NCBI GenBank assembly: GCA_965222035.1
Contig: OZ244940.1
Location: 1,529,537 to 1,593,536 of the forward strand
Length of the DNA stretch: 64,000 bases
Source: Candidatus Amphirhobacter sp.
Lineage (GTDB): Bacteria > Pseudomonadota > Gammaproteobacteria > Tethybacterales > Tethybacteraceae
Direction of reading: 5' to 3'
The notes under the pieces were generated by a model, which saw nothing but the letters and a program-made list of their open reading frames with translations, was not told the origin of the DNA and ran no database searches. Of this stretch, positions 20,741 through 49,552 are shown in pieces; within the stretch, counting starts at the first letter, position 1, and each line of letters begins with the position of its first letter. Made by a program: the position numbers and the translations under genes.

Positions 20741-20741
20741 C

Positions 20742-21717: not shown

Positions 21718-21739
21718 TGCTTATCACGGTTTCCCTCCA

Positions 21740-22208: not shown

Positions 22209-22213
22209 GCGCC

Positions 22214-33768: not shown

Positions 33769-35349
33769 TCAGCGATTGATGGGTGGCGGCAGGACCTTGG
33801 CGGAGTGCCGCCAGAGGGGCTCGTCATAATAGGTTGGGACGTAGTCGTCGCTGTAGACTAGCAAGTCCCTCAAGTCCTTGTAAATCCTGAGCATCCCGAT
33901 TCGCCTGACGGGGGCATAATTAGTGTCAAGGACAACAACGCCATAGGTGAGGAGGTGTGAGAACAATTTCCGGTCCGGGTGCTTGGATTGGATGTCTTGG
34001 AACTTCTCTTTATCATAGATGGGGACATTGCGATGCAGGTAGTAGTAGCTGAAATGCTGCATATCAAAATACACACCTTCTAAATCCTCTTGTTCATGCA
34101 GCCAGGTGAGGCCGGCAAAGAAGCCAGGGGTGTTGTGCAGGTAGCCGAGCTGGTAGGGGTCTTTGTCAAAGCTCCCGACCTTGTAGATCCAATTGTCCTT
34201 GACGTAGCCGAGCGCGACCAGCAAGCCGAAGACCAGCTGCAAGGCGATCAGGCCGCGGGTCAGGTCATGGCGCAGCTCGCGCAGCTGGGCGTGGCGGAAC
34301 CAGGTGCTCAACAGCCAAGCCGCGGTCGGCATCCACAGGAAGAACATCGGCGCCACATAGCGGAATTCCTTGTGGGGAGATAGCATGTGCGGCAGCATGA
34401 TCGCCAGTGCCATCAGCAGGGTCAGCAGATGCAGGCGCGGCCGCCACAGCCAGGCGAGGACGGCGAGCAGGATGTAGCCAGCCGAGATGAACAGCAGCCG
34501 CTGAGGGTAGAAGATCTCGCCGCCGCCTCTGTGGAAGTCCTCCGGTGGATTGAGATTCCACAGCATGTGCATGTAGATCGAGTTGAACGGGCGTCCCCAG
34601 GTGAGGAAATCCAGCAAGCCGTAGGCGAGTATGGCCAGCAGTCCACCTGCGATAGAACGCAAGGCCCAGCGTGCGGGCATGGCTGCGGCCACCGCCAGCC
34701 ACAGGATGCCGAGCGCCGGCAGGTAGAGGTAGCGCAGGAAGGCGGCGACGCCGAGCATGATGCCGAATACCCAGGCGCCGGCGTCGCCGCGGATGAAGGG
34801 CCGGCCAGCCAGGCCCATGGCCGATGCTAGCATCACGCCGGCCAGCATGCCGGTCAGGGTCTTGGCCGCGAAGGCCAGCAGATAGAAGTTAAAGACGCCG
34901 AGCAGCAGCGCGATCCGCCCGGCGACCTCGCCGTGCTGGTGCCGGGTGAAATGGTATAGGCCCCAGGGGATTAGCAATGAGAAAACACAGAAGAATGCCT
35001 CGACGAAGGGGACGTAGTAAGCGGGGTGGTCGATGCCCAGCCACTTGAACGGCAGCAGCAGCGCCGCGACGACGCCCGGCAGCAGATAGCTGCGCCCCCC
35101 CCAGTGTGATTCCCAGGTGATGATGCCATAGCCAAACGCCAGCCGATGTCCCTGCTCCAGGTATTGCTGGATTTCGTCGAGGTAGGCGATGAAGTCAGAG
35201 AACATATGCAGGCCGAGCCGCAGCAGCAGCGCCGCCGCCAGGCAATGCGGCAGGTAACGCCAGGACGGCTGGACCGTCGCGCCTGGCGCCTGGTACAGAT
35301 TGAGGTGGCGCAGCTGGAGCAGCATGTTGGAGATGACGTTCGTGCTCAT
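33769..35349 (-). CDS. GT-C membrane glycosyltransferase, GT22/PIG-B/Alg9-like, array copy 1 (distal); hallmark motif partly degenerate
   Basis: Multi-TM N-terminus with first-loop motif YLDEIQQYLEQGHRLAFGYGIITWESHWGGRSYLLPG (LDE/TWES instead of PDE/TWEW) and a C-terminal soluble domain of about 150 aa. Confidence 0.65.
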   Translation of the reverse strand: MSTNVISNMLLQLRHLNLYQAPGATVQPSWRYLPHCLAAALLLRLGLHMFSDFIAYLDEIQQYLEQGHRLAFGYGIITWESHWGGRSYLLPGVVAALLLPFKWLGIDHPAYYVPFVEAFFCVFSLLIPWGLYHFTRHQHGEVAGRIALLLGVFNFYLLAFAAKTLTGMLAGVMLASAMGLAGRPFIRGDAGAWVFGIMLGVAAFLRYLYLPALGILWLAVAAAMPARWALRSIAGGLLAILAYGLLDFLTWGRPFNSIYMHMLWNLNPPEDFHRGGGEIFYPQRLLFISAGYILLAVLAWLWRPRLHLLTLLMALAIMLPHMLSPHKEFRYVAPMFFLWMPTAAWLLSTWFRHAQLRELRHDLTRGLIALQLVFGLLVALGYVKDNWIYKVGSFDKDPYQLGYLHNTPGFFAGLTWLHEQEDLEGVYFDMQHFSYYYLHRNVPIYDKEKFQDIQSKHPDRKLFSHLLTYGVVVLDTNYAPVRRIGMLRIYKDLRDLLVYSDDYVPTYYDEPLWRHSAKVLPPPINR

Positions 35350-36926
35350 GGTTTGATGGGCGGCGGTAGGATTTTAGCGGAATGCTGCCAGAGAGGCTCG
35401 TCATAATAGGTTGGGACGTAGTCGTCGCTGTAGACTGGCAAGTCCCTCAAGTCCTTGTAAATCCTGAGCATCCCGATTCGGCTGACGGGGGCATAATTAG
35501 TGTCAAGGACAACAACGCCATAGGTGAGGAGGTGTGAGAACAATTTCCGGTCCGGGTGCTTGGATTGGATGTCTTGGAGCTTCTCTTTATCATAGATGGG
35601 GACATTGCGATGCAGGTAGTAGTAGCTGAAATGCTGCATATCAAAATACACACCTTCTAAATCCTCTTGTTCTTGCAGCCAGGTGAGGCCGGCAAAGAAG
35701 CCAGGGGTGTTGTGCAGGTAGCCGAGCTGGTAGGGGTCTTTGTCAAAGCTCCCGACCTTGTAGATCCAATTGTCCTTGACGGCGCCAAGCGCTACCAGCA
35801 TCCCGAAAATCAGCTGGATGCCAATCAGGCCGCGGGTCAGGTCATGGCGCAGCTCGCGCAGCTGGGCGTGGCGGAACCAGGTGCTCAACAGCCAGGCCGC
35901 GGTCGGCATCCACAGGAAGAACATCGGCGCCACATAGCGGAATTCCTTGTGGGGAGATAGCATGTGCGGCAGCATGATCGCCAGTGTCATCAGCAGGGTC
36001 AGCAGATGCAGGCGCGGCCGCCACAGCCAGGCGAGGACGGCGAGCAAGATGTAGCCAGCCGAGATGAACAGCAGCCGCTGAGGGTAGAAGATCTCGCCGC
36101 CGCCTCTGTGGAAGTCCTCCGGCGGGCTGAGGTTCCACAGCATGTGCATGTAGATCGAGTTGAACGGGCGTCCCCAGGTGAGGTAATCGAGCAAGCCATA
36201 GGCGAATATGGCCAGCAGTCCACCTGCGATAGAACGCAAGGCCCAGCGTGCGGGCATGGCTGCGGCCACCGCCAGCCACAGGATGCCGAGCGCCGGCAGG
36301 TAGAGGTAGCGCAGGAAGGCGGCGACGCCGAGCATGATGCCGAATACCCAGGCGCCGGCGTCGCCGCGGATGAAGGGCCGGCCAGTCAGGCCCATGGCCG
36401 CCGCCAGCACCACGCCGGACAGCATGCCGGTCAGGGTCTTGGCCGCGAAGGCCAGCAGGTGGAAGTTGACGACGCCGAGCAGCAGCGCAATCCGCCCGGC
36501 GGTCTCGCCGTGCTGCTGCCGGGTGAAATGGTACAGCCCCCATGGAATCAGCAGCGAGACGATGCAGAAGAAGGCTTCGACGAAGGGGACGTAGTAAGCG
36601 GGGTGGTCGATGCCCAGCCACTTGAACGGCAGCAGCAGCGCCGCGACGACGCCCGGCAGCAGATAGCTGCGCGCCCCCCAGTGCCATTCCCAGGTTGTCA
36701 GGCCGTAGCCGAAGGCCAATCGATGCCCCTGCTCCAGATACTGATACAACTCGTCCGGATAAGTGATGAAGTCTGAGAACATATGCAGCCCGAGCCGCAG
36801 CAGCAGCGCCGCGGCCAGGCAATGTGGCAGGTAGCGCCAGGACGGCTGGGTCGTTGGTCCGGGAGCTTGGTAAAGTCCAAGGCGGCGCAGCTGGAGAAGC
36901 ATGCTAGGGATGGTGCTTGCGCTCAA
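35346..36926 (-). CDS. GT-C membrane glycosyltransferase, GT22/PIG-B/Alg9-like, array copy 2
   Basis: YPDELYQYLEQGHRLAFGYGLTTWEWHWGARSYLLPG. It is nearly identical to copy 1 over long stretches and has a 4-nt overlap with its neighbours. Confidence 0.7.
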   Translation of the reverse strand: MSASTIPSMLLQLRRLGLYQAPGPTTQPSWRYLPHCLAAALLLRLGLHMFSDFITYPDELYQYLEQGHRLAFGYGLTTWEWHWGARSYLLPGVVAALLLPFKWLGIDHPAYYVPFVEAFFCIVSLLIPWGLYHFTRQQHGETAGRIALLLGVVNFHLLAFAAKTLTGMLSGVVLAAAMGLTGRPFIRGDAGAWVFGIMLGVAAFLRYLYLPALGILWLAVAAAMPARWALRSIAGGLLAIFAYGLLDYLTWGRPFNSIYMHMLWNLSPPEDFHRGGGEIFYPQRLLFISAGYILLAVLAWLWRPRLHLLTLLMTLAIMLPHMLSPHKEFRYVAPMFFLWMPTAAWLLSTWFRHAQLRELRHDLTRGLIGIQLIFGMLVALGAVKDNWIYKVGSFDKDPYQLGYLHNTPGFFAGLTWLQEQEDLEGVYFDMQHFSYYYLHRNVPIYDKEKLQDIQSKHPDRKLFSHLLTYGVVVLDTNYAPVSRIGMLRIYKDLRDLPVYSDDYVPTYYDEPLWQHSAKILPPPIKP

Positions 36927-38476
36927 CGCCTGATGGGCGGCGGCAGGATCTTGGCAGAGTGCTTCCAGTTATCGTCCGAGGCAAAATCGGAACTGTAATC
37001 TTCGGTGTAAAGCGGACCAGTCCTAACATCTTCGTAGATTTTCGCACTGCCGATTTGCTTGACCAGGCGCAAGGAGGGCGAGGAAATCAGATTATAGGTG
37101 AGGATGTGCGAGACCAGTTTCTTGTCGGGGTTCTGCTTGGTGGCATGATCGAACATCGACAGATTGTAAATAGGAATATTGCGATGCAGGTAGTAGTAAT
37201 TAAAATTATGCACGGCAAACAATATGCCTTTCACATCATCTTGTTCTCGTATCCAGGCGATGGCAGGAAAGAAGTCGGGAGTGTTGTGGAAATAGCCGAG
37301 CTCGTTGTTGTCTTTGACATAGTCGCCGACGCTGTAAATCCAGTTATCATTGACGGTGTCGGACGCGACCAGCATGCTGAAAATCAGTTGAATGCCAATC
37401 AGGACGCGCGTTAGGTCATGGCGGTAAGGACGCACCCGGGCGCGCCGGCTCCAGATGCTGAGCAGCCAGGCCGCGGCCGGCATCCACAGGAAGAACAGCG
37501 GTGCCACATAGCGGAACTCCTTGTGGACGGTCAGCATGTGCGGCAACAGGATAGCCAGGTACAGCAGCATGGTCAGCAGATGCCGGCGCGGTTGCCGCAG
37601 CCAGGCGAGGATGGTAAGCGCGAGGCAGCCGGCCGAGATGAACAGCAGCCGCTGTGGATAGAAGATCTCGCCGCCGCCGGTGTGAAAGCCCTCCGGCGGG
37701 CTGAGGTTCCATAGCATGTGCATGTAGATTGAGTTGAACGGCCGCCCCCAGGTGAGATAGTCGAGCAATCCATATGCGATCACCACCAGCATCCCGCCAG
37801 CGATGGAGCGCAAGACCCAGCGCGCGGGCATGGCTATGGCGACCGCCAGCCACAGGATGCCGATGGCGGGCAGGTAGAGGTAGCGCAGGAAGAAGGCGAA
37901 GCCGAGCAGGATGCCGAACAGCCAGGCGCCCGCGTCGCCGCGGATGAATGGCCGTCCCGCCAAACCCATCGCGGCCGCCAGCATCACGCCTGACAGTGTC
38001 TCGGTCAAGGTTTTGGCCGCGAAGGTTATCAGGTAGAAGCTGACGACGCCGAGCAGCAATGCGATCCGCCCGGCGGCCTCGCCGTACTGATGCCGGGTGA
38101 AGTGGTACAGACCCCAGGGGATCAACAGCGAGACAACGCAGAAGAAGGCTTCGACGAAGGGGACGTAATAGGCGGGATGGTCGATGCCTAGCCACTTGAA
38201 TGGCAGCAACAGGGCGGCGACGACCCCGGGCAGCAGATAGCTGCGTGCCCCCCAGTGCCATTCCCAGATCGTAATGCTGTAACCGAAGGCCAGCCGATGG
38301 CCTTGCTCTTGGTAATGCCAGATTTCATCCGGAAAGGCGATGAAGTCCGAGAAGATATGCAGCCCAAGCCGCAGCAGCAGTGCGACAATCAGGCAATGAG
38401 GCAGGTAGCGCCATGACGGCTGGGGAGTCGTACCTGGCGCTTGGTACAGATTGAGGCTGTGCAGTTGGGCAAGCAT
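36923..38476 (-). CDS. GT-C membrane glycosyltransferase, GT22-like, array copy 3
   Basis: FPDEIWHYQEQGHRLAFGYSITIWEWHWGARSYLLPG. Confidence 0.7.
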   Translation of the reverse strand: MLAQLHSLNLYQAPGTTPQPSWRYLPHCLIVALLLRLGLHIFSDFIAFPDEIWHYQEQGHRLAFGYSITIWEWHWGARSYLLPGVVAALLLPFKWLGIDHPAYYVPFVEAFFCVVSLLIPWGLYHFTRHQYGEAAGRIALLLGVVSFYLITFAAKTLTETLSGVMLAAAMGLAGRPFIRGDAGAWLFGILLGFAFFLRYLYLPAIGILWLAVAIAMPARWVLRSIAGGMLVVIAYGLLDYLTWGRPFNSIYMHMLWNLSPPEGFHTGGGEIFYPQRLLFISAGCLALTILAWLRQPRRHLLTMLLYLAILLPHMLTVHKEFRYVAPLFFLWMPAAAWLLSIWSRRARVRPYRHDLTRVLIGIQLIFSMLVASDTVNDNWIYSVGDYVKDNNELGYFHNTPDFFPAIAWIREQDDVKGILFAVHNFNYYYLHRNIPIYNLSMFDHATKQNPDKKLVSHILTYNLISSPSLRLVKQIGSAKIYEDVRTGPLYTEDYSSDFASDDNWKHSAKILPPPIRR

Positions 38477-38496
38477 GCTGGAAACGGACCCTTCGC

Positions 38497-40050
38497 TCAG
38501 CGCTTGCTGGGCGCGGGCAGGACCTTGGCGGAGTTCTGCCAGTTGGGATCTGTTGAGTAATCGGAACTGTAATCTTCAGTGTAGATTGGGCCAGCCCTCA
38601 CATCCTCGTAGATCTTCGCACTGCCGATTTGCTTGACCAGGCGCAAATAAGGCGAGGAAAACAGATGATAGGTGAGGATGTGCGAGACCAGTTTCTTGCC
38701 GGGGTTCTGCTTGGTGGCATGATCGAACATCGACAGATTGTAAATAGGAATATTGCGATGCAGGTAGTAGTAATTAAAATTATGCACGGCAAACAATATG
38801 CCTTTCACATCATCTTGTTCTCGCAGCCAGGCGATGGCGGCGAAGAAATCGGGAGTGTTGTGCAAATAGCCGAGCTCGTCATTGTCCTTGTTGCTACCAC
38901 TGACATCGTAAACCCAGTAATCATTGACGGAGCCGGACGCGATCAGCATGCCGAAGGCCAGCTGAATGCCGACCAGGACGCGTACCAGGTCATGACGATA
39001 CCGGCGCAGCCGGGCGCGGCGGACCCAGTCGCTGAGCAGCCATCCTGCAGCTGGCATCCACAGGAAGAACAGCGGCGCCACAAAGCGGAACTCCTTGTGG
39101 GTGGCGAGCATGTGCGGCAGCAGGATGGACAGCGCCATTAGCAAGGTCAGCAGATGCAGGCGCGGACGTCGCAGCCAGGCGAAGATGGCGAGCAGGAAGC
39201 CGCCGGCCGAGATGAACAGCAGCCGCTGCGGATACACGAGCACGTCCCGTCCCGAATGGTAACCTTCAGTAGGATTGAAATTCCACAGCATATGTATGTA
39301 GATGGAGTTGAACGGCCGTCCCCAAGTGAGGAAATCAAGCAAGCCGTAGGCGATAATCGCCAGCAACCCTCCCGCTATTGAGCGGAGGGCCCAGCGTGCG
39401 GGCATGGTGATGGCGACCGCCAGCCACAGGATGCCGATGGCGGGCAGGTAGAGGTAGCGCAGGAAGAAGGCGAAGCCGAGCAGGATGCCGAACAGCCAGG
39501 CGCCCGCGTCGCCGCGGATGAATGGCCGTCCCGCCAAACCCATCGCGGCCGCCAGCATCACGCCTGACAGTGTCTCGGTCAAGGTTTTGGCCGCGAAGGT
39601 TATCAGGTAGAAGCTGACGACGCCGAGCAGCAATGCGATCCGCCCGGCGGCCTCGCCGTACTGATGCCGGGTGAAGTGGTACAGACCCCAGGGGATCAAC
39701 AGCGAGACAACGCAGAAGAAGGCTTCGACGAAGGGGACGTAATAGGTGGGATGGTCGATGCCTAGCCATTTGAACGGCAGCAGCAAAGCGGCGACGATTC
39801 CGGGCAGCAGATAGCTGCGCGCCCCCCAGTGCCATTCCCAGATCGTAATGCTGTAGCCGAAGGCCAGCCGATGGCCTTGCTCTTGGTAATGCCAGAGTTC
39901 ATCCGCAAAGGTGATGAAGTCGGAGAACATATGGAGGCCGAGCCGCAGCAGCAGTGCGGCTACCAGGCAATGCGGCAGGTACCGCCAGGACGGCTGGAAC
40001 GTCGTACCCGGCGCCTGGTGCATTCCCAGGCGACGCAGCTGTAGGATCAT
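38497..40050 (-). CDS. GT-C membrane glycosyltransferase, GT22-like, array copy 4
   Basis: FADELWHYQEQGHRLAFGYSITIWEWHWGARSYLLPG. The start is set at the conserved MILQLRRL; the ORF track extends to 40155. Confidence 0.65.
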   Translation of the reverse strand: MILQLRRLGMHQAPGTTFQPSWRYLPHCLVAALLLRLGLHMFSDFITFADELWHYQEQGHRLAFGYSITIWEWHWGARSYLLPGIVAALLLPFKWLGIDHPTYYVPFVEAFFCVVSLLIPWGLYHFTRHQYGEAAGRIALLLGVVSFYLITFAAKTLTETLSGVMLAAAMGLAGRPFIRGDAGAWLFGILLGFAFFLRYLYLPAIGILWLAVAITMPARWALRSIAGGLLAIIAYGLLDFLTWGRPFNSIYIHMLWNFNPTEGYHSGRDVLVYPQRLLFISAGGFLLAIFAWLRRPRLHLLTLLMALSILLPHMLATHKEFRFVAPLFFLWMPAAGWLLSDWVRRARLRRYRHDLVRVLVGIQLAFGMLIASGSVNDYWVYDVSGSNKDNDELGYLHNTPDFFAAIAWLREQDDVKGILFAVHNFNYYYLHRNIPIYNLSMFDHATKQNPGKKLVSHILTYHLFSSPYLRLVKQIGSAKIYEDVRAGPIYTEDYSSDYSTDPNWQNSAKVLPAPSKR

Positions 40051-40069
40051 GCTGGAACGGCGCTCGCGC

Positions 40070-41623
40070 TCAGCGTTTAATGGGCGCAGGCAGCACCTTG
40101 GCGGAGTGCCGCCATAGAGGTTCTTCATAATATATCGGATTGTAGTCATCGGCAACCGCCTGGTCCATTGCCATGTTCTTATAGATGCGAGCCAGCCCGA
40201 TGCGTTTGATCAAGGAGAAGCCAGGAGTGTCTAGTTGGTTATAGGTGAGCACATGCGAGACGAGTTTCTTGCCCGGGTGCTTGCTTGAGGCGTATTTTAG
40301 TCGTTCCAAGTTGTAAACAGGAACATTGCGGTGCAGATAATAGTAGTTGAAATTGTTGCCGCCGTAAAAAACTCCTTGCAGGTCTTCTTGCTCGTGCAGC
40401 CACGCAATGCCGGCGAAAAAGTCAGGGGTGTTGTGCAGGTAGCCGAGTTGGTCGGCGTCCTTGTCATAGTCGCCGACCTTGTAAATCCAGTAATCATTGA
40501 CGGCGCCAGTCGCAACCAGCAAGCCAAAAATCAGTTGGCTGGCGATTAGGATGCGAGCCAGATCATGGCGATAAGGGCGCAGCCGGGCGCGCCGGCTCCA
40601 GACGCTGAGCAGCCAGGCCGCGGCCGGCATCCAGAGGAAGAACAGCGGTGCCACAAAGCGGAACTCCTTGTTAGGGGCAAGCATGTGCGGCAAAAGGATG
40701 GCCAGGGATATCAGGATGGTCAGCAGATGCAGACGCGGGAGCCGTATCCAGGCGAAAATAGTGAGTAAGATGCCGCCGGCCGAAACGAATAACAGCCGCT
40801 GTGGATGAAAGATTTCACCGCCGCCAGAGTGAAAATCTTCCGGCGGGCTGAGGTTCCATAGCATGTGCATGTAGATTGAGTTGAACAGCCGCCCCCAGGT
40901 GAGATAGTCGAGCAATCCATATGCGATCACCACCAGCATCCCGCCAGCGATGGAGCGCAAGATCCAGCGCGCGGGCATGGCTATGGCGACCGCCAGCCAC
41001 AGGATGCCGATGGCGGGCAGGTAGAGGTAGCGCAGGAAGAAGGCGAAGCCGAGCAGGATGCCGAACAGCCAGGCGCCCGCGTCGCCGCGGATGAACGGCC
41101 GCCCCGCCAAACCCATCGCCGCCGCCAGCATCACGCCTGACAGTGTCTCGGTCAAGGTTTTGGCCGCGAAGGCTATCAGGTAGAAGCTGACGACGCCGAG
41201 CAGCAATGCGATCCGAGCAGCGGTCTCGCCGTGCTGGTGTCGGGTGAAATGGTACAGGCCCCACGGAATCAGCAGCGATAAAACGCAGAAGAATGCCTCG
41301 ACGCAGGGTACGTAATAGGCGGGATGGTCGATGCCTAGCCATTTGAACGGCAGCAGCAAAGCGGCGATGATCCCTGGCAGCAGATAGCTGCGTGCGCCCC
41401 AGTGCCACTCCCATAGAACGACGCCGTAACCAAAGGCCAGTTTATGGCCTTGCTCCAGGTAATGATGTAGTTCGTCTGGATAGGCGATGAAGTCGGAGAA
41501 CATATGAAGGCCGAGTCGCAGCAGCAGCGCAGCGGCTAGGCAATGCGGCAGATAGCACCAGGATGGCCTGCTCTTTGGCCCCGGTGCTTGGTACAGGTTT
41601 AGGCTCCGCAGGTAGGTTGCCAT
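40070..41623 (-). CDS. GT-C membrane glycosyltransferase, GT22-like, array copy 5
   Basis: YPDELHHYLEQGHKLAFGYGVVLWEWHWGARSYLLPG. The start is set at MATYLRSLNLYQAPG. Confidence 0.65.
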   Translation of the reverse strand: MATYLRSLNLYQAPGPKSRPSWCYLPHCLAAALLLRLGLHMFSDFIAYPDELHHYLEQGHKLAFGYGVVLWEWHWGARSYLLPGIIAALLLPFKWLGIDHPAYYVPCVEAFFCVLSLLIPWGLYHFTRHQHGETAARIALLLGVVSFYLIAFAAKTLTETLSGVMLAAAMGLAGRPFIRGDAGAWLFGILLGFAFFLRYLYLPAIGILWLAVAIAMPARWILRSIAGGMLVVIAYGLLDYLTWGRLFNSIYMHMLWNLSPPEDFHSGGGEIFHPQRLLFVSAGGILLTIFAWIRLPRLHLLTILISLAILLPHMLAPNKEFRFVAPLFFLWMPAAAWLLSVWSRRARLRPYRHDLARILIASQLIFGLLVATGAVNDYWIYKVGDYDKDADQLGYLHNTPDFFAGIAWLHEQEDLQGVFYGGNNFNYYYLHRNVPVYNLERLKYASSKHPGKKLVSHVLTYNQLDTPGFSLIKRIGLARIYKNMAMDQAVADDYNPIYYEEPLWRHSAKVLPAPIKR

Positions 41624-41627
41624 GCTG

Positions 41628-43184
41628 TCAACGTTTGATTGGCGAGGGCAGGAACTTGGCGGAGTGCTGCCATAGGATTTCATCCTCATATGTCGGGATG
41701 TAGTCATCGACGAACACCTGCCCTTCTCTGGAATCTTTATAGAGATAGACTTCGCCTATTTTATGCACTAGCTGAAAGCCAGGCTTATTGATTGGATTGT
41801 AGGCGATGACATGGGAAATTAGTTTCTTGCCTGGATGCTTTCGGGAAGCGAGGCCGAGCTTGACCAAATCATAGATGGGAACATCACGATGCAGATGGTA
41901 GTAGTTGAAATTGTCCTCACTGAAAAACACACCTTCTAAATCCTCTTGTTCATGCAGCCAGGCGAGGCCGGCGAAGAAGTCCGGGGTATTGTGCAGGTAT
42001 CCGAGCTGGTTGTTGCCTTTGTCAATATGCCCGACTTTGTAGATCCAATTATCCTTGACGGCGCCAAGCGCGACCAGCATGCCAAAGGCCAGCTGGGTGC
42101 CGATCAGGACGCGGGTAAGGTCATGGCGGTACCGGCGCAGCCTGGCGCGGCGGCCCCAGTCGCTGAGCAGCCAGCCGGCAGCCGGCATCCACAGGAAGAA
42201 CAGCGGCGCCACATAGCGGAACTCCTTGTGGTAAGTAAGCATGTGCGGCAGCAGGACGGCTAGGGACAGCAGTATGGCCAGCAAATGCGGGCGCGGCTGA
42301 CGCAGCCAGGCAAACAAGGCAAGCAGGATGCCTCCAGCTGAGACGAATAGCAGCCGCTGCGGGTAGAAAATCCCGTCGCCGGTATGGAAGCCTTCCTTGT
42401 CCACTGGATTGAGGTGCCAAACCAAGTGAGCGTAAATCGAGTTGAAAGGCCGTCCCCAGGTGAGGTAATCGAGCAAGCCGGCGGCGAGTACGGCCATCAT
42501 TCCCCCTGCGATGGAGCGCAAGGCCCAGCGCGAAGGCATGGCGACCGCGACCGCCAGCCACAGGATGCCAAGGACGGGCAGGTAGAGATAGCGCAGGAAG
42601 GCGGCGATGCCGAGCACGATTCCGAACAACCAAGCGCCGGCGTCGCCGCGGATGAACGGCCGGCCGGCCAGGCCCATCGCCGCCGCCAGCATTGTTGCGG
42701 TTAGTATGTCGGTCAGGGTCTTGGCCGCGAAGGCCAGCAGGTAGAAGTTGACGACGCCGAGCAGCAGGGCAATCCGAGCAGCGGCCTCGCTGTGATGGTG
42801 CCGGGTGAAGTGGTACAGCCCCCAGGGGAGCAGCAGCGAGAAAACGCAGAAGAAGGCCTCGACGACAGGCACGTAGTAGACAGGATGATCGAAGCCTAGC
42901 CACTTGAACGGCAGCAGCAGCCCAGCGATGATCCCTGGCAGCAGGTAGCTGTGCGTGCCCCAGTTCCACTCCCAGGTGATAAGGCCGTAGCCGAAGGCCA
43001 GTCGATGTCCCTGCTCCAGGTACTGATACAGTTCATCCGGATAGGAGATGAAGTCGGAGAACATATGCAGCCCGAGCCGCAGCAGCAGCGCCACAATCAG
43101 GCAATGCGGCAAGTAGCGCCAGGACGGTTGGGCCGTCGTACCAGGCGCTTGGTATATTCCCATGCGGCGCAGTTGAAGAATCAT
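41628..43184 (-). CDS. GT-C membrane glycosyltransferase, GT22-like, array copy 6
   Basis: YPDELYQYLEQGHRLAFGYGLITWEWNWGTHSYLLPG. The start is set at MILQLRRMGIYQAPG. Confidence 0.65.
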   Translation of the reverse strand: MILQLRRMGIYQAPGTTAQPSWRYLPHCLIVALLLRLGLHMFSDFISYPDELYQYLEQGHRLAFGYGLITWEWNWGTHSYLLPGIIAGLLLPFKWLGFDHPVYYVPVVEAFFCVFSLLLPWGLYHFTRHHHSEAAARIALLLGVVNFYLLAFAAKTLTDILTATMLAAAMGLAGRPFIRGDAGAWLFGIVLGIAAFLRYLYLPVLGILWLAVAVAMPSRWALRSIAGGMMAVLAAGLLDYLTWGRPFNSIYAHLVWHLNPVDKEGFHTGDGIFYPQRLLFVSAGGILLALFAWLRQPRPHLLAILLSLAVLLPHMLTYHKEFRYVAPLFFLWMPAAGWLLSDWGRRARLRRYRHDLTRVLIGTQLAFGMLVALGAVKDNWIYKVGHIDKGNNQLGYLHNTPDFFAGLAWLHEQEDLEGVFFSEDNFNYYHLHRDVPIYDLVKLGLASRKHPGKKLISHVIAYNPINKPGFQLVHKIGEVYLYKDSREGQVFVDDYIPTYEDEILWQHSAKFLPSPIKR

Positions 43185-43203
43185 GCTGGAGGTTGTGCCA
43201 CGC

Positions 43204-44757
43204 TCAACGCTTGACAGGCGGAGGCAGGATCTTGGCGGAGTGCTGCCAGAAGCGTTCATCAGGATAAGTCGGGACGTAGTCTGCGCTGTAAATTGGCAAA
43301 TCCCTTATGTCTTTGTAAATCCTGACGTTGCCGATTCTTTTGACGAGAACGTAATCGGGCTTAATCAAAGCGGCATAGGTGATGACGTGCGAAAACAGTT
43401 TCCGGCCGGGGTGCTTGAGCTGGGCGTTTTCCAATTTCCACTCATCATAGATGGGAACATCGCGATGTAGATAATAGTAGCTGAAATTATTTACATTGAA
43501 ATAAACACTCTCCACATCCTCTTGCTCATGCAGCCAGGCGATGCCGGCGAAAAAATCCGGCGTGTTGTGCAGATAGCCGAGCTCGACGTTGCCTTTGCCA
43601 ATATCCCCGACTTCGTAGATCCAATTGTCATTGATGGCGCCAAGCGCTACTAGTACGCCGAAGGCCAGCTGGATGCCAATCAGGCCGCGCATCAGGTCAT
43701 AGCGACACCAGCGCAGCCGGGCGCGGCGGCCCCAGCCGCTGACCAGCCAGCCAGCGGCCGGCATCCACAGGAAGAACAGCGGCGCTACATAGCGGAACTC
43801 CTTGTGGACGGTCAGCATGTGCGGCAGGAGGATAGCCAGGTACAGCAGCATGAGCAGCAGATGCAGGCGCGGTTGCCGCAGCCAGGCGATGATGGTAAGA
43901 ACGATGCAGCCGGCCGAGATGAACAGCAGCCGCTGTGGATAGAAGGATTCGCCGCCGCCGCTGTGGAAGCCCTCCGGTGGATTGAGATTCCACAGCATGT
44001 GCATGTAGATCGAGTTGAACGGGCGTCCCCAGGTGAGGTAATCGAGCAAGCCATAGGCGAATATGGCCAGCAGCCCGCCCGCGATCGAGCGCAGAGTCCA
44101 TCGCGCGGGCATGGTGATAGCGACCGCCAGCCACAGGATGCCGAGCGCTGGCAGATAGAGATAACGCAGGAAAGCGGCGACGCCGAGCAGGATGCCGAAC
44201 AGCCAGGCGCCGGCGTCGCCGCGGATGAACGGCCGGGAGGCCAGGCCCATGGCCGCCGCCAGCATGGTACCGGCCATGATCTCGGTCAACGTCTTGGCCG
44301 CGAAGGCCAGCAGGTAGAAGTTGACGACGCCGAGCAGCAGCGCGATCCGCCCGGCGGTCTCGCCGTACTGCTGCCGGGTGAAATGGTACAGCCCCCATGG
44401 AATCAGCAGCGAGACGATGCAGAAGAAGGCTTCGACGAAGGGGGCGTAATATGACGGATGGTCGATCCCCAGCCACTTGAACGGCAGCAGCAACGCCGCG
44501 ACGATGCCGGGCAGCAGATAATTGCGCGCGCCCCAGTGCCATTCCCAAAAGACGAGGCCGTAGCCGAACGCCAGCCTATGTCCCTGCTCCAGGTATTGGT
44601 GCAGTTCATCCGGGTAGACGACGAAGTCGGAGAACATATGCAGCCCGAGCCGCAGCAGCAGCGCCGCAAGCAGGCAATGCGGCAGGTAGCGCCAGGACGG
44701 CTGGACCGTCGCACCAGGCGCTTGGTACAGGTTGAGGCGGCGTAGCTGAAGAATCAT
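43204..44757 (-). CDS. GT-C membrane glycosyltransferase, GT22-like, array copy 7
   Basis: YPDELHQYLEQGHRLAFGYGLVFWEWHWGARNYLLPG. Confidence 0.7.
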   Translation of the reverse strand: MILQLRRLNLYQAPGATVQPSWRYLPHCLLAALLLRLGLHMFSDFVVYPDELHQYLEQGHRLAFGYGLVFWEWHWGARNYLLPGIVAALLLPFKWLGIDHPSYYAPFVEAFFCIVSLLIPWGLYHFTRQQYGETAGRIALLLGVVNFYLLAFAAKTLTEIMAGTMLAAAMGLASRPFIRGDAGAWLFGILLGVAAFLRYLYLPALGILWLAVAITMPARWTLRSIAGGLLAIFAYGLLDYLTWGRPFNSIYMHMLWNLNPPEGFHSGGGESFYPQRLLFISAGCIVLTIIAWLRQPRLHLLLMLLYLAILLPHMLTVHKEFRYVAPLFFLWMPAAGWLVSGWGRRARLRWCRYDLMRGLIGIQLAFGVLVALGAINDNWIYEVGDIGKGNVELGYLHNTPDFFAGIAWLHEQEDVESVYFNVNNFSYYYLHRDVPIYDEWKLENAQLKHPGRKLFSHVITYAALIKPDYVLVKRIGNVRIYKDIRDLPIYSADYVPTYPDERFWQHSAKILPPPVKR

Positions 44758-44775
44758 GCTGGAGGTTGTGCCACG

Positions 44776-46326
44776 TCAACGCTTGATAGGCGGCGGCAGG
44801 ATCTTGGCGGAGTGCTGCCAGTTGGGTCCCTCATAATACCTTGAATTGTAGCCGTCGATGTAGGTCGGCGTATCTCTGATGTCTTTGTAAATCCTGACGT
44901 TGCCGATTCTTTTGGCGAGAACGTAATCGGGATTAATCAAAGCGCTATAGGTGATGATGTGCGAAAACAGTTTCTGGCCGGGGTGCTTGAGCTGGGCGTC
45001 TTTCAATGTCCAGCTATTATAGATGGGGACATCGCGATGCAGATAATAGTAGTTGAAATTATTCACATTGAAATAAACGCTCTCCACATCCTCTTGCTCA
45101 TGCAGCCAGGCGATGCCGGCGAAAAAATCCGGCGTGTTGTGCAGATAGCCGAGCTGGTCGTTGACTTTGTCAATATGCCCGACCTTGTAGACCCAATTGT
45201 CATTGATGGCGCCAAGCGCTACTAGCACGCCGAAGGCCAGCTGGATGCCAATCAGGCCGCGCGCTAGGTCATGGCGATACCAGCGCAGCCGGGCGCGGCG
45301 GCTCCCGCTGACCAGCCAGCTAGCAGCCGGCATCCACAGGAAGAACAGCGGTGCCACATAGCGGAACTCCTTGTGGACGGTCAGCATGTGCGGCAACAGG
45401 ATAGCCAGGTACAGCAGCATGGTCAGCAGATGCCGGCGCGGTTGCCGCAGCCAGGCGAGGATGGTAAGCGCGAGGCAGCCGGCCGAGATGAACAGCAGCC
45501 GCTGTGGATAGAAGATCTCGCCGCCGCCGGTGTGAAAGCCCTCCGGTGGATTGAGGTTCCACAGCATGTGCATGTAGATCGAGTTGAACGGACGTCCCCA
45601 GGTGAGGAAATCGAGCAAGCCGTAGGCGATTATCGCCAGCAACCCGCCCGCGATCGAGCGCAAGGCCCAGCGTGCGGGCATGGTTGCGGCGACTGCCAGC
45701 CACAAAATGCCGAGCGCCGGCAGGTAGAGATAACGCAGGAAAGCGGCGACGCCGAGCAGGATGCCGAACAGCCAGGCGCCAGCGTCGCCGCGGATGAACG
45801 GCCGGCCCGTCAGGCCCATCGCCGCCGCCAGCATCACGCCGGCCAGCATGCCGGTCAGCGTCTTGGCTGCGAAGGCCAGCAGGTGGAAGCTGACGACGCC
45901 GAGCAGCAGCGCGATCCGCCCGGCGGCCTCGCCGTACTGCTGCCGGGTGAAATGGTACAGCCCCCACGGAATCAGCAGCGAGACGATGCAGAAGAAGGCT
46001 TCGACGAAGGGAACGTAATAGGAGGGATGGTCGATGCCCAGCCACTTGAACGGCAGCAGCAGTGCCGCGACGATGCCGGGCAGCAGATAATTGCGCGCGC
46101 CCCAGTGCCACTCCCCAAAGACGAGGCCGTAGCCGAACGCCAGCTTGTGTCCTTGCTCCAGGTACTGCTGCAGCTCGTCCGGATAGGCGACGAAGTCCGA
46201 GAACATATGCAGCCCGAGCCGCAGCAGCAGCGCCGCGATCAGGCAATGCGGCAGGTAGCGCCAGGATGGCTGGACCGTCGTACCAGGCGCTTGGTACAGG
46301 TTGAGGCGGCGCAGCTGGAGAAGCAT
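44776..46326 (-). CDS. GT-C membrane glycosyltransferase, GT22-like, array copy 8
   Basis: YPDELQQYLEQGHKLAFGYGLVFGEWHWGARNYLLPG (TWEW is replaced by FGEW). Confidence 0.7.
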   Translation of the reverse strand: MLLQLRRLNLYQAPGTTVQPSWRYLPHCLIAALLLRLGLHMFSDFVAYPDELQQYLEQGHKLAFGYGLVFGEWHWGARNYLLPGIVAALLLPFKWLGIDHPSYYVPFVEAFFCIVSLLIPWGLYHFTRQQYGEAAGRIALLLGVVSFHLLAFAAKTLTGMLAGVMLAAAMGLTGRPFIRGDAGAWLFGILLGVAAFLRYLYLPALGILWLAVAATMPARWALRSIAGGLLAIIAYGLLDFLTWGRPFNSIYMHMLWNLNPPEGFHTGGGEIFYPQRLLFISAGCLALTILAWLRQPRRHLLTMLLYLAILLPHMLTVHKEFRYVAPLFFLWMPAASWLVSGSRRARLRWYRHDLARGLIGIQLAFGVLVALGAINDNWVYKVGHIDKVNDQLGYLHNTPDFFAGIAWLHEQEDVESVYFNVNNFNYYYLHRDVPIYNSWTLKDAQLKHPGQKLFSHIITYSALINPDYVLAKRIGNVRIYKDIRDTPTYIDGYNSRYYEGPNWQHSAKILPPPIKR

Positions 46327-46346
46327 GCTGGGGACGGCGCCCGCGC

Positions 46347-47924
46347 TCAGCGCCTGATGGGCGGCGGCAGGACCTTGGCGGAGTTCTGCCAGTTGGGTTC
46401 TTCAAAGTACATCGGGGTGTATTCCTTGTCATAGATCGGCGCATCCCGAATGTCTTTGTAAATCTTGAGATGGCCGATTTGCTTGACGAGAACGTACTGG
46501 GGCGGGCTGAATTCGCCATAGGTGATGATGTGCGAGACGAATTTCCGATCCGGGTGCTTTCGCTGGGCATATAGATATTTCAAATCATCATAGATAGGGA
46601 CATCGCGATGCAGGTGGTAGTAGTTGAAATTATTCACATTGACATAAAGACCCTCCAAGTCATCTTGCTCATGCAGCCAGGTGAGGCCAGCGAAGTAGGC
46701 TGGGGTGTTATGCAGGTAGCCCATCTGGTCGATGCCCTTGTCATGACTGCCGACATTGTAGATCCAATTGTCCTTGACGGCGCCGATCGCGACCAGCAAG
46801 CCGAAGACCAGCTGCAAGGCGATCAGGCCGCGGGTCAGGTCATGGCGAATGTGGCGCAGCTGGGCGTGGCGGAACCAGGCGCTCAGCAGCCAGGCCGCGG
46901 CCGGTATCCACAGGAAGAACATCGGCGCTATATAGCGGAACTCCTTGTGGACGGTCAGCATGTGCGGCAGCATGATGGCTAGCGCCATCAGCAGGGTCAG
47001 CAGATGCAGGCGGGGCCGCCACAGCCAGGCGAGGACAGCGAACAGGATGTAGCCGGCCGAGATGAACAGCAGCCGCTGCGGATAGAAGATCTCGCCTTCG
47101 CCGGTGTGAAAGCCCTCCGTCGGGTTGAGGTTCCACAGCATGTGCATGTACATGGAGTTGAACATCCGGCCCCAGGTGAGGAAATCCAGCAAGCCGTAAG
47201 CGAGGATGGCCAGCAGTCCGCCCGCGAGTGAGCGCAGGATCCAGCGCGCGGGCATGGTGATAGCGACCGCCAGCCACAGGATGCCGAGCGCTGGCAGGTA
47301 GAGATAACGCAGGAAAGCGGCGACGCCGAGCAGGATCCCGAACAGCCAGGCGCCGGCGTCGCCGCGGATGAACGGCCGGCCACTCAGTCCCATGGCCGCC
47401 GCCAGCATCACGCCGGACAGCATGCCGGTCAGGGTCTTGGCCGCGAAGGCCAGCAGATAGAAGTTGACGACGCCGAGCAGCAGCGCGATCCGCCCGGCGG
47501 TCTCGCCGTACTGCTGCCGAGTGAAATGGTACAGGCCCCACGGGATCAGCAGCGAGACAAAGCAGAAAACAGATTCGACGAAAGGGACGTAATAGGAGGG
47601 ATGGTCGATGCCCAGCCACTTGAACGGCAGCAGCAGTCCAGCGACGATTCCCGGCAGCAGATAATTGCGCGCGCCCCAGTGCCACTCCCAAAAGACGAGG
47701 CCGTAGCCGAACACCAGCTTGTGCCCTTGCTCCAGGTACTGCTGCAGCTCGTCCGGATAGGCGACGAAGTCGGAGAACATATGGAGGCCGAGCCGCAGCA
47801 GCAACGCGGCGATCAGGCAATGCGGCAGGTAGCGCCAGGATGGCTGGACCGTCGGGCCCGGCGCTTGGTATATTCCCAGGCGGCGCAGCTGGAGCAGCAT
47901 GCTAGAGACGACGGTTGCGTTCAA
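46347..47924 (-). CDS. GT-C membrane glycosyltransferase, GT22-like, array copy 9
   Basis: YPDELQQYLEQGHKLVFGYGLVFWEWHWGARNYLLPG. Confidence 0.7.
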   Translation of the reverse strand: MNATVVSSMLLQLRRLGIYQAPGPTVQPSWRYLPHCLIAALLLRLGLHMFSDFVAYPDELQQYLEQGHKLVFGYGLVFWEWHWGARNYLLPGIVAGLLLPFKWLGIDHPSYYVPFVESVFCFVSLLIPWGLYHFTRQQYGETAGRIALLLGVVNFYLLAFAAKTLTGMLSGVMLAAAMGLSGRPFIRGDAGAWLFGILLGVAAFLRYLYLPALGILWLAVAITMPARWILRSLAGGLLAILAYGLLDFLTWGRMFNSMYMHMLWNLNPTEGFHTGEGEIFYPQRLLFISAGYILFAVLAWLWRPRLHLLTLLMALAIMLPHMLTVHKEFRYIAPMFFLWIPAAAWLLSAWFRHAQLRHIRHDLTRGLIALQLVFGLLVAIGAVKDNWIYNVGSHDKGIDQMGYLHNTPAYFAGLTWLHEQDDLEGLYVNVNNFNYYHLHRDVPIYDDLKYLYAQRKHPDRKFVSHIITYGEFSPPQYVLVKQIGHLKIYKDIRDAPIYDKEYTPMYFEEPNWQNSAKVLPPPIRR

Positions 47925-49504
47925 AGATGCACGGGCTGCGGAAGGACCTTGGCGGAGTTCTGCCAGTTGGGTTCCTCATAATACATTGAAGTGTAGTCGT
48001 CGATGTAGATCGGCGCGTCCCTGATGTCTTTGTAAATCCTGACATGCCCTATTTCCTTGGAGAGAATGTAATTTTCATGACGTATCTCGCCATAGGTGAT
48101 GATGTGTGAGAACAGTTTCTGGTCCGGGTGCTTGAGTTGGGCGTAGTAAAGCTTAAACTGATCATAGATGGGAACATTGCGATGCATATAGTAGTAGTTG
48201 AAATTATTATCAGTGAAGTATACGCCCTCCAAATCATCTTGCTCATGCAGCCAGGCGATGCCGGCGAAGAAGTCGGGAGTGTTGTGCAGGTAGCCGAGCT
48301 GATCGATGCCTTTGTCGAAAGCACCGACCTTGTAGATCCAATTATCTTTGATGACGCCGATTGCGACCAGCATGCCGAAGGCCAGCTGGATGCCAATCAG
48401 GCCGTGGGCCAGGCCAAGGCGATACCGGCGCAGCTTGGCATGGCGAAAGATCAACAGCCAGGCGGCGGCCGGCATCCACAAAAACAGCAAGGGCGCCACA
48501 TAGCGGAACTCCTTGTGGACGGTCAGCATGTGCGGCAGCAGGATGGACAGGGCCATCAGCATGGTCAGCAGATGCAGGCGCGGACGCCACAGCCAGGCGA
48601 GGACAGCGAGCAGGATGTAGCCAGCTGTGATGAACAGCAGCCGCTGCGGATAGAAGATCTCGCCGCCGCCGGTGTGGAAACCCTCCGGCGGGTTGAGGTT
48701 CCACAGAATGTGCATGTAGATTGAATTGAATATGCGGCCCCAGGTGAGGAAATCCAGCAAGCCGTAGGCGAGTATGGCCAGCAGTCCGCCCGCGAGTGAG
48801 CGCAGGGCCCAGCGCGCGGGCATGACGACGGCGACCGCCAGCCACAGGATGCCGAGCGCCGGCAGGTAGAGGTAGCGCAGGAAGGCAGCGACGCCGAGCA
48901 TGATGCCGAACAGCCAGGCGCCGGCGTCGCCGCGGATGAACGGGCGGGCGGCCAGGCCCATGGCCGCCGCCAGCACCACGCTGGACAGCATGCCGGTCAG
49001 GGTCTTGGCCGCGAAGGCCAGCAGATAGAAGTTGACGACGCCGAGCAGCAGCGCGATCCTCCCGGCGGCCTCGCCGTGCTGGTGCCGGGTGAAATGGTAC
49101 AGCCCCCAGGGGATCAGCAGTGAGAAAACACAGAAGAATGCCTCGACGAAGGGGACGTAGTAAGCGGGGTGGTCGATGCCCAGCCACTTGAACGGCAGCA
49201 GCAGCGCCGCGACGATGCCCGGCAGCAGATAGCTGCGCGCGCCCCAGTGCCACTCCCAGGTCACCAAGCTGTAGCCGAACGCCAACCTGTGGCCCTGTTC
49301 CAAATACTGCTGCAGCTCGTCCGGATAGGAGACGAAGTCCGAGAACATATGCAGCCCGAGCCGCAGCAGCAGCGCTGCGGCCAGGCAATGCGGCAGGTAG
49401 CGCCAGGACGGCTGGACCGTCGCGCCTGGCGCTTGGTACAGGTTGAGGCTGCGCAGGCGATCTATCAGTACTAGCATCGTGGGTAGCAGCCGCTTGTCCG
49501 CCAA
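47921..49504 (-). CDS. GT-C membrane glycosyltransferase, GT22-like, array copy 10 (promoter-proximal)
   Basis: YPDELQQYLEQGHRLAFGYSLVTWEWHWGARSYLLPG. The TTG start at 49504 is preceded by TATAAAAT. An alternative ATG at 49477 aligns with the paralog N-termini (MLVLIDRLRSLNLYQAPG). Confidence 0.65.
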   Translation of the reverse strand: MADKRLLPTMLVLIDRLRSLNLYQAPGATVQPSWRYLPHCLAAALLLRLGLHMFSDFVSYPDELQQYLEQGHRLAFGYSLVTWEWHWGARSYLLPGIVAALLLPFKWLGIDHPAYYVPFVEAFFCVFSLLIPWGLYHFTRHQHGEAAGRIALLLGVVNFYLLAFAAKTLTGMLSSVVLAAAMGLAARPFIRGDAGAWLFGIMLGVAAFLRYLYLPALGILWLAVAVVMPARWALRSLAGGLLAILAYGLLDFLTWGRIFNSIYMHILWNLNPPEGFHTGGGEIFYPQRLLFITAGYILLAVLAWLWRPRLHLLTMLMALSILLPHMLTVHKEFRYVAPLLFLWMPAAAWLLIFRHAKLRRYRLGLAHGLIGIQLAFGMLVAIGVIKDNWIYKVGAFDKGIDQLGYLHNTPDFFAGIAWLHEQDDLEGVYFTDNNFNYYYMHRNVPIYDQFKLYYAQLKHPDQKLFSHIITYGEIRHENYILSKEIGHVRIYKDIRDAPIYIDDYTSMYYEEPNWQNSAKVLPQPVHL

Positions 49505-49529
49505 TGCTGAATTTTATAAAATGTTAGTT

Positions 49530-49543
49530 GCCTGCTTGCAGGC
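49530..49543 (+). promoter_or_regulatory. Inverted repeat GCCTGC-TT-GCAGGC in the divergent promoter region between the GT array and the transporter gene
   Basis: Read directly from the sequence. It lies 10 nt upstream of the transporter ATG, and no SD is visible. Confidence 0.25.
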
Positions 49544-49552
49544 GCATTTGCT

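Follow-up and report, generated by a model that had tools for sequence, protein, structure and literature searches.

In mycobacteria, the EmbC-EmbA-EmbB enzymes are encoded by tandem, same-strand paralogs of GT-C glycosyltransferases (GTs), which take their sugar from a polyprenyl-phosphate donor in the periplasm, carry C-terminal periplasmic domains and act on distinct acceptors; these GT53 enzymes occur in three copies and are stable orthologs across species. Tandem paralogs are also found in trypanosomatids, where three to four copies of STT3, a eukaryotic GT66 oligosaccharyltransferase, differ in their acceptor preferences. In Gtr modules, a GtrA flippase, the undecaprenyl-phosphate-glucose synthase GtrB and a serotype-specific GtrC decorate the O-antigen. 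The GT22 family has so far been characterised only via enzymes of the endoplasmic reticulum (ER) and of glycosylphosphatidylinositol (GPI) biosynthesis. Here, we describe an uncharacterised bacterial branch of this family that forms a tandem array of ten paralogous genes (G1-G10) on the minus strand at positions 33769-49504 of a 64,000-nucleotide (nt) stretch of contig OZ244940.1 from a Candidatus Amphirhobacter sp.; this whole stretch is referred to as the window.

The enzyme class is known; new are its tandem expansion to 10-11 copies, the recombination of its modules and its occurrence in a reduced genome related to sponge symbionts. We propose, with a probability of about 60% for the whole chain, that the array represents a co-oriented, probably co-transcribed repertoire of periplasmic GT-C enzymes that diversifies an envelope glycan by strain. 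All ten genes would encode functional inner-membrane transferases of a bacterial GT22-like family (Alg9/Alg12/PIG-B type), whose N-terminal transmembrane (TM) catalytic module is predicted by homology to use a polyprenyl-phosphate-linked sugar as the donor, and whose C-terminal periplasmic domain, with a fold that appears homologous to the luminal domain of ALG12/ALG9, would help to hold the acceptor glycan. A single ancestral gene between ArsP_2 and trpC was tandemly amplified in one lineage related to the sponge symbiont AqS2, and the array now evolves by duplication, loss and segmental gene conversion, the latter homogenising the catalytic module and re-assorting it with a pool of old, divergent C-domains. 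The product would be a strain-differing transferase repertoire with varied acceptor or linkage specificity, acting on the periplasmic side to build or decorate an envelope glycoconjugate (lipopolysaccharide (LPS), a glycolipid, or a periplasmic glycan or glycoprotein).

A first-pass annotation, made from the sequence alone, had reported ten consecutive minus-strand paralogous open reading frames (ORFs) in this interval, and the ORF listing of the window returns them back to back at the same coordinates, with lengths of 516-552 amino acids (aa) as longest ORFs. The copies are paralogs with 74-87% aa identity to G3 over a full-length alignment and a mean column identity of 79%. A conserved Met (M[LI]LQLRRL) is common to all ten and to the copies in related genomes; counted from this residue, the proteins have 516-518 aa (~517), the spacers are 18-20 nt, except for 4 nt before G6, and the array has a period of ~1574 bp. 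Of the junctions annotated earlier, the gaps of 4-20 nt persist, but the ATGA overlaps are not a fixed feature, since both these overlaps and the lengths of 525-552 aa result from taking the longest ORF, which extends to upstream in-frame start codons. For G2, G9 and G10, the start may be either the conserved Met or that of the longer ORF. The copies are arranged as follows, in order of transcription:

47921..49477, minus strand: G1, promoter-proximal copy, 518 aa from the conserved Met (longest ORF 47921-49504), PF03901 E=1.1e-21; positional ortholog of copy 1 on PANK22-1 scaffold_7, with 96% nt identity and a synonymous divergence (dS) of 0.10
46347..47900, minus strand: G2, 517 aa (longest ORF 46347-47924), ortholog of P2 with 94% nt identity
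44776..46326, minus strand: G3, 516 aa (longest ORF identical), the copy modelled, PF03901 E=2.6e-21, W71G in loop EL1
43204..44757, minus strand: G4, 517 aa (longest ORF identical), recent duplicate of G3 with 91% nt identity
41628..43184, minus strand: G5, 518 aa (longest ORF 41628-43259)
40070..41623, minus strand: G6, 517 aa (longest ORF 40070-41707), the most divergent copy, with a 4-nt upstream spacer and a MATYLRSL-type N-terminus
38497..40050, minus strand: G7, 517 aa (longest ORF 38497-40155)
36923..38476, minus strand: G8, 517 aa (longest ORF identical), the clearest mosaic, PF03901 E=2.3e-26
35346..36902, minus strand: G9, 518 aa (longest ORF 35346-36926), 93% nt identity to G10
33769..35325, minus strand: G10, the last copy, 518 aa (longest ORF 33769-35349), PF03901 E=4.3e-20

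The assignment of the ten proteins to the GT-C fold and the GT22 (Alg9-like) family is well supported by profile searches and structural modeling. All five copies tested match the Glyco_transf_22 profile PF03901 over its positions 3-376 of 414, with 72.7-93.4 bits (cutoff 23.8) and E-values from 4e-20 to 2e-26. PMT_2 was not significant in the same scan (E=0.24), and no NCBIfam model matches the array proteins. Compared with the PDB, the family profile retrieved chicken ALG12 (9s6t, E=2.4e-16) and human ALG9 (E=3.1e-8) as the only relevant proteins of solved structure. The AlphaFold2 model of G3 has a predicted local distance difference test score (pLDDT) of 82.3 and a predicted TM-score (pTM) of 0.86, and its top three Foldseek matches in the PDB are ALG12 9s6t (E 7.9e-8, TM-score 0.59-0.63) and ALG9 9s6u and 9s6s; further significant matches are mostly GT-C enzymes, namely the oligosaccharyltransferase OST/STT3, AglB, ArnT, AftD, PimE and PMT. 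The first-pass reading of a GT22 GT-C enzyme, not a transporter, is thereby borne out. A transporter identity was considered and rejected, transporters being present at non-significant Foldseek scores only.

The eukaryotic enzymes carry their catalytic base on the first helix of luminal loop 1, where it is D82 in HsALG9 and E35 in GgALG12 (PMC13503287). The loop motif Y-PDE-LQQY-LEQGH-RLAFGYG-..WEW-HWGARSYLLPG, noted at first pass, is present in the translations and alignment of the array proteins, and when the profile is aligned with ALG9, D50 of its PDE segment falls on the D82A position of the solved mutant. Neither D50 nor E51 varies among the ten copies or in any of the 38 copies examined; by homology, Asp50-Glu51 in the predicted first periplasmic loop may act as the catalytic base. 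All 16 residues that are invariant in the wider family are kept in each of the ten copies, including D50, E51, E57, H60, E72, R198, H313, R322 and H430-R431. The motif HKEFR[YF], present in 10/10 copies, aligns to PHKE[LE]RF of ALG12/ALG9, and its K319, E320 and R322 are invariant or nearly so across the wider family. Near-invariant positions of EL1 that vary among the copies are Q54H, L56Q, G67S, W71G and R78H. Mannose would be the donor sugar if family membership alone is taken as the guide.

The type of donor can be approached through the wider family. Among distant members (24-40% identity), a recurrent gene cluster includes a DPM1/GtrB-like GT2 gene, which is immediately adjacent in loci L029, L037, L045, L052 and L074 and nearby in L040 and L041; the GT2 copy of L029 carries a fused GtrA-type TM domain. 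Genes for PMT_2-TPR GT-C proteins are adjacent in L029, L040, L041 (three copies), L050, L051 and L052, and in these same loci (30-33% identity) a cluster of GT2, one to three PMT_2-TPR genes and the GT22-like gene recurs, which looks like an uncharacterised polyprenyl-phosphate-sugar-dependent periplasmic glycosylation module. By a rough estimate, ~0.1 such GT2 genes would be expected by chance beside 80 loci; the association therefore supports a polyprenyl-phosphate-sugar donor for the family, the sugar itself not being identified by association.

A profile search of 1.84 billion representative proteins gave 10,868 matches at E<=1e-3 and 1625 clusters (50% identity) at E<=1e-30, of which more than 150 full-length clusters reach E<=1e-100; at least 425 JGI-metagenome loci encode relatives, and the sampled neighbourhoods are bacterial. 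The distant GT22-like relatives are labelled 'hypothetical protein' in the sources. GT22-like enzymes are therefore not rare in bacteria, contrary to the overstated claim of the first-pass annotation; what is rare is the close clade (>=45% identity) and the array itself. Recent horizontal gene transfer from a eukaryotic host was also considered and rejected, given an identity to ALG9/ALG12 of only ~15% and the bacterial gene neighbourhoods in which the sampled members of this large family occur.

The variation among the copies, analysed for 38 intact copies from four genomes, is structured by domain. The N-terminal TM module has a mean pairwise aa identity of 79% and a per-segment entropy of 0.15-0.8, while the C-terminal 145 residues are 59% identical, with an entropy of 1.37 for residues 431-516; at a threshold of 80%, at least 19 C-domain types are distinguished across the four genomes. 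Divergence had earlier been placed in two predicted loops and the C-terminal domain; it is indeed concentrated in the latter, but the loops (244-271 and ~341-349) are only moderately variable. Synonymous divergence exceeds 1 in the C-domain versus 0.35-0.6 in much of the core, which suggests that the core is kept uniform by conversion and that the C-domain lineages are old and have persisted. In G5, the N-module is 94% aa identical to that of S10 and clusters with C5 (>=90%), whereas the C-domain is at most 74% identical to that of any other copy, a mismatch that shows domain shuffling. N-modules and C-domains are re-assorted. In ALG12, the cavity that accommodates the B branch of the acceptor is built from the luminal domain together with LL1, the first luminal loop (PMC13503287). 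The C-domain of the array proteins resembles this acceptor-contacting domain and, by analogy, probably selects the acceptor.

Recombination is also evident along the genes. The nearest neighbour in sliding windows switches among paralogs, with tracts of 97-100% identity; G8 is G7-like, G6-like, G3-like and again G7-like in this order, and G10 is 95-99% identical at its 5' end to copy 10 of ctg497527, then G1-like, then G9-like. The pairwise homoplasy index (PHI) is 0.520 versus 0.576 +/- 0.004 in permuted alignments, with none of 1000 permutations as low. Exact tracts are shared by G7 and G8 (337 bp; 39410-39746 = 37836-38172), a pair with an overall identity of only 86.6%, by G3 and G8 (221 bp; 45326-45546 = 37476-37696), by G9 and G10 (179 bp) and by G6 and G8 (132 bp), while 25-64 bp would be expected by chance. 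These patterns show that the copies are mosaics generated by segmental gene conversion, and the 93% nt identity of G9 and G10 points to a recent duplication.

The abundant segmental conversion in the array (mosaic pattern, PHI, tracts of up to 337 bp) is a trait shared with pilE/pilS and vlsE loci, where one expressed gene draws on a reservoir of cassettes. A comparable system, with G1 alone expressed and the downstream copies serving as the reservoir, would further accord with the single obvious upstream non-coding region and the very short spacers. However, all ten copies are full length with their own conserved ATG and are constrained over the whole length, unlike the silent, truncated and promoterless cassettes without start codons of such loci; between genomes, G1 (96%) and G2 (94%) vary least of all copies rather than most, and the product is an enzyme of the inner membrane instead of a surface antigen. 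We consider such a system highly improbable.

The ratio of nonsynonymous to synonymous divergence (dN/dS) among the ten copies is 0.20-0.36 for pairs, with a mean of 0.29 and a maximum of 0.47 in 30-codon windows, indicating that all ten copies are under purifying selection. Taken over pairs that are orthologous or recent, the N-module has a ratio of 0.19 and the C-domain one of 0.31, and the C-domains of G3 and G4 show the highest value of all pairs tested (0.77). These values bear on a non-adaptive or dosage explanation, in which the array would be a by-product of unequal crossing-over in a symbiont with a small population and its functionally redundant copies, which would at most raise the enzyme dose, would slowly decay. 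Pseudogenised copies in relatives, a GC content and GC at third codon positions (GC3) below those of housekeeping genes, a dN/dS about twice that of flanking genes, and other expansions in the window (four AAA_22 genes and three tandem HNH_4 genes) would fit this explanation. Against it, every copy shows a dN/dS of 0.2-0.36 along its entire length, and the family-invariant residues are kept in 10/10; the copies are 74-87% aa identical with dS of 0.2-0.9 overall and >1 in the C-domain, implying long maintenance; at least ten copies persist in at least four diverged genomes; and the divergence follows domains and is not uniform. It is therefore judged distinctly unlikely.

The locus was followed in independent assemblies, in which the synteny ArsP_2, GT22 array, trpC-trpD recurs:

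PANK22-1 SAMN12290255 scaffold_7: 10 copies, one of them frameshifted
ctg497527 (951 kb): 11 copies, one frameshifted and one N-terminally damaged
PANK22-1 SAMN12290345 scaffold_1 (473 kb): at least 11 copies
SAMN12290123 scaffold_628: at least 8 copies; the contig ends within the array and the trpC side alone is visible
ctg146130 (152 kb), a more distant relative: exactly 1 copy, with the gene order from pyrG to mla unchanged
AqS2: at least 2 copies beside trpC at a contig end, and an ArsP_2 contig ending in a GT22 N-terminus

An inflated or mis-joined repeat count would agree with the relatives' short-read assemblies, which break within the array (AqS2 contigs L005 and L026; contigs of 2-15 kb). 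However, the copies differ by 7-25% nt, so that each can be resolved, the contig that includes the window measures 1.86 Mb, and 10, 11 and at least 11 copies, partly collinear, are present in three assemblies from other samples, with at least 8 in a truncated fourth. An assembly artefact is thus scarcely credible, and the copy number, as first annotated, is real. The 'ctg..x_l' names of some contigs are of a kind that a long-read assembler would probably give.

Close homologs (>=45% identity) are confined to ~40 protein clusters, which come from few assemblies; among these are AqS2 and a contig binned to AqS1. The latter, a 3971-bp contig assigned to the gammaproteobacterial co-symbiont 'Ectothiorhodospiraceae bacterium AqS1', encodes adjacent GT22 copies (P0035 and P0038) with 78% identity to the single-copy gene of ctg146130 and 73% to an AqS2 copy; it stems either from mis-binning of part of the AqS2 array or from gene transfer between symbionts of the same host. 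No array was found among the 80 best JGI-metagenome loci of distant family members, two of which (apparently one organism) have two tandem copies, and a profile search of genome contigs with the ten-copy alignment confirmed no locus. Searches of the literature on Tethybacterales, AqS2 and bacterial GT22 gave no mention of the array or of the function of the bacterial family; the first-pass impression that the array is undescribed is in line with this.

The array evolves faster than the genes around it. In comparisons of the window with the PANK and ctg497527 genomes, the flanking genes retain 95-97% nt identity (dS 0.07-0.27, dN/dS 0.03-0.16), while clear positional orthologs are limited to G1 (96% nt), G2 (94%) and G3 (91%), all other copies being at most 88% identical to any copy elsewhere. 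Compared with the single-copy relative, GT22 has 50% aa identity, YhdP 57% and six other neighbouring genes 73-84%.

This turnover bears on a further alternative, a pathway operon in which the ten enzymes would act in succession, each adding one defined sugar in one linkage to a single conserved complex glycan. It would parallel the succession of ALG3, ALG9, ALG12 and again ALG9 in the ER, or of PIG-M, PIG-V, PIG-B and PIG-Z in the GPI pathway, and every one of the structurally closest eukaryotic GT22 enzymes transfers just one mannose per defined step (PMC13503287). The ten copies look catalytically intact and constrained, the four genomes with the most complete arrays have a similar copy number (10-11 or more), and some C-domain types are common to several genomes. 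However, the repertoires differ strongly despite the near-identical flanks, most of the C-domain types are unshared, frameshifted or truncated copies occur in relatives, and G9/G10 and G3/G4 are recent duplicates. Furthermore, one copy suffices in one relative, and the re-assortment of modules by gene conversion would scramble a fixed pathway. Such an operon is therefore unlikely, albeit less so than redundancy or a silent reservoir.

The array is bounded by the following features:

49478..49552, strand not assigned: presumed promoter region, an AT-rich divergent intergenic region of 75 bp between G1 and the ArsP_2 gene
49553..50710, plus strand: ArsP_2 permease gene, the upstream boundary, PF11449 E=2.4e-115
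32965..33753, plus strand: trpC (indole-3-glycerol phosphate synthase), the downstream boundary, PF00218 E=4.8e-82, which recurs in relatives

The 75-bp region is presumed to hold the promoter because it is the sole non-coding gap of more than 20 nt adjoining the array, and it is kept in two related genomes. A terminator consensus scan of the array gave no convincing terminator, the recurrent terminator-like matches corresponding to the coding motif LRLGLHMFS in each copy. Given this result and the spacers of 4-20 nt, co-transcription of the ten genes from one promoter is plausible. Shine-Dalgarno motifs are absent before all ten copies and likewise before many housekeeping genes of the window, so that no inference is drawn from their absence. 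An Rfam scan of 28-54 kb returned no match, and Tandem Repeats Finder (periods <=500 bp) found no repeat. The GC content of the array is 0.56-0.62 versus 0.67-0.70 in the flanks, and its GC3 is 0.72-0.83 versus 0.85-0.94 in neighbouring housekeeping genes, for which membrane-protein composition, weaker selection or foreign origin are possible causes.

The ArsP_2 boundary is the same in all related loci in which that end was recovered, including the single-copy relative, and G10 and trpC are convergent and 15 nt apart. The trpC side contains trpD-trpC with mla genes beyond trpD, and the other side contains ArsP_2, tldD, a CN-hydrolase gene, an AAA_22 gene, yhdP, a PGM/PMM (phosphoglucomutase/phosphomannomutase) gene, pyrG and kdsA; the neighbours thus form a Gram-negative envelope gene set. 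The window is part of a contig of 1,855,096 bp, of which the array makes up ~0.85%. The closest named genome is 'Betaproteobacteria bacterium AqS2' (aa identity of ArsP_2 85%, MlaF 82%, trpD 77%), the Amphimedon queenslandica symbiont Amphirhobacter heronislandensis of the Tethybacterales, which has a reduced genome (PMC8546597).

Other features of the window were recorded as side observations. A tandem HNH_4 array at 15192-18624 on the minus strand comprises three genes (15192-16352, 16349-17503 and 17500-18624) of 374-386 aa with a C-terminal HNH_4 endonuclease domain and 39-53% mutual identity, located in a lower-GC stretch; one of them gives weak PADLOC matches (PDC-M01B, PtuB and Cas9 HNH regions). 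Four dispersed paralogs of AAA_22 P-loop ATPases of ~400 aa, 34-65% identical, lie at 1087-2283 (plus), 28207-29409 (minus), 30546-31757 (minus) and 53052-54215 (minus); they are absent at equivalent positions in ctg146130 and AqS2, have no PADLOC or NCBIfam assignment, and vary among close relatives, with no blastn match in PANK22-1 and 85% in ctg497527. The 28-32 kb stretch with two of these genes has a GC content of 0.565 versus ~0.67 and includes a 228-aa ORF (29569-30255) without a Pfam match, and a gene for a XerC/D-type tyrosine recombinase (2328-3245, plus) adjoins the paralog at 1087-2283. A Sel1-repeat protein is encoded at 24091-24915 (plus; five repeats, E=1.7e-36), a eukaryote-like repeat class often noted in sponge symbionts. 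Additionally, ORFs at 21194-22879 (minus, 561 aa) and 20319-21173 (plus, 284 aa) have high GC3 and no match in Pfam, NCBIfam or PADLOC.

Several observations weigh against the proposal of a strain-diversifying periplasmic repertoire. Pfam scans of candidate ORFs and tblastn revealed neither a polyprenyl-phosphate-sugar synthase nor a GtrA flippase in the window, nor any other partner of a glycan pathway. The first-pass annotation had named a phosphomannomutase at 58338; a PGM/PMM-family gene is present (58338-59726), but its assignment to mannose metabolism is not supported, the best NCBIfam model, PgmG, scoring below its cutoff. Upstream of G1, the promoter consensus scan gave a plus-strand match alone and no minus-strand match. 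The periplasmic topology is based on the positive-inside rule and homology, and hydropathy could not resolve the number of TM segments. Since no region has dN/dS >1, positive diversifying selection is not demonstrated, and since relatives carry frameshifted or truncated copies, individual copies are dispensable. Part of the amplification could also reflect a general tendency of the genome, because the window holds other expanded families (AAA_22, HNH_4).

Bacterial surface glycans such as LPS are suspected cues by which sponges discriminate symbionts from food, which is still an open question (PMC8546597). No locus nearby evolves as fast as the array, and its content differs between strains of otherwise 95-97% identity; located in a reduced 1.86-Mb genome, it is thus a testable candidate locus for strain-specific variation of envelope glycans in a widespread clade of sponge symbionts. 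As a more tentative extension, which we would not favour on balance, the array might act as a recombination-driven generator of glycan diversity, in which the catalytic module is re-assorted with acceptor-recognition C-domains, so that related strains would display different envelope glycans; the sponge host could read such patterns to tell symbiont from food, or they could serve escape from phages. If this were true, modular, cassette-shuffled biosynthetic enzymes, not surface antigens, would serve host-symbiont recognition. The function assigned to the array is inferential; the locus is nonetheless of good interest for both symbiosis and GT-C research, as it offers a natural domain-swap series for work on acceptor specificity, with one catalytic module and at least 19 C-domain types.

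Among known systems, ALG12 and ALG9 (GT22; 9s6t, 9s6s and 9s6u) share ~15% sequence identity with the array proteins, which are bacterial and predicted to be periplasmic, not of the ER. The acceptor of the array enzymes cannot be the dolichyl-diphosphate-linked GlcNAc2Man(n) (Dol-PP-GlcNAc2Man(n)) of N-glycan biosynthesis, and eukaryotes keep single, highly conserved genes, whereas the array consists of 10-11 recombining tandem copies. PIG-B and PIG-Z/SMP3 of the GPI pathway share the Pfam family with the array, and some of its distant homologs bear the automatic JGI labels 'phosphatidylinositol glycan class B' or 'GPI mannosyltransferase 3'; proteobacteria are not known to have a GPI pathway, and the window gives no hint of a GPI-like acceptor. 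The trypanosomatid STT3 genes resemble the array as tandemly duplicated GT-C enzymes. Analogous to Gtr modules, a polyprenyl-phosphate sugar may be made in the cytoplasm, flipped and moved by a variable membrane transferase onto a surface glycan to give a strain-specific decoration, and distant family members display such a context, with the GT22-like gene beside a GtrB/DPM1-like GT2 gene. Unlike in Gtr modules, no GtrA or GtrB adjoins the array in the window, the transferases belong to another family, and there are ten of them instead of one per module. The nearest bacterial precedent is EmbCAB, in which tandem GT-C paralogs divide acceptors among them and for which Emb/Aft structures are among the Foldseek matches; it differs in its GT family (GT53) and in having three copies, not ten, and it does not form a fast-turnover mosaic array.

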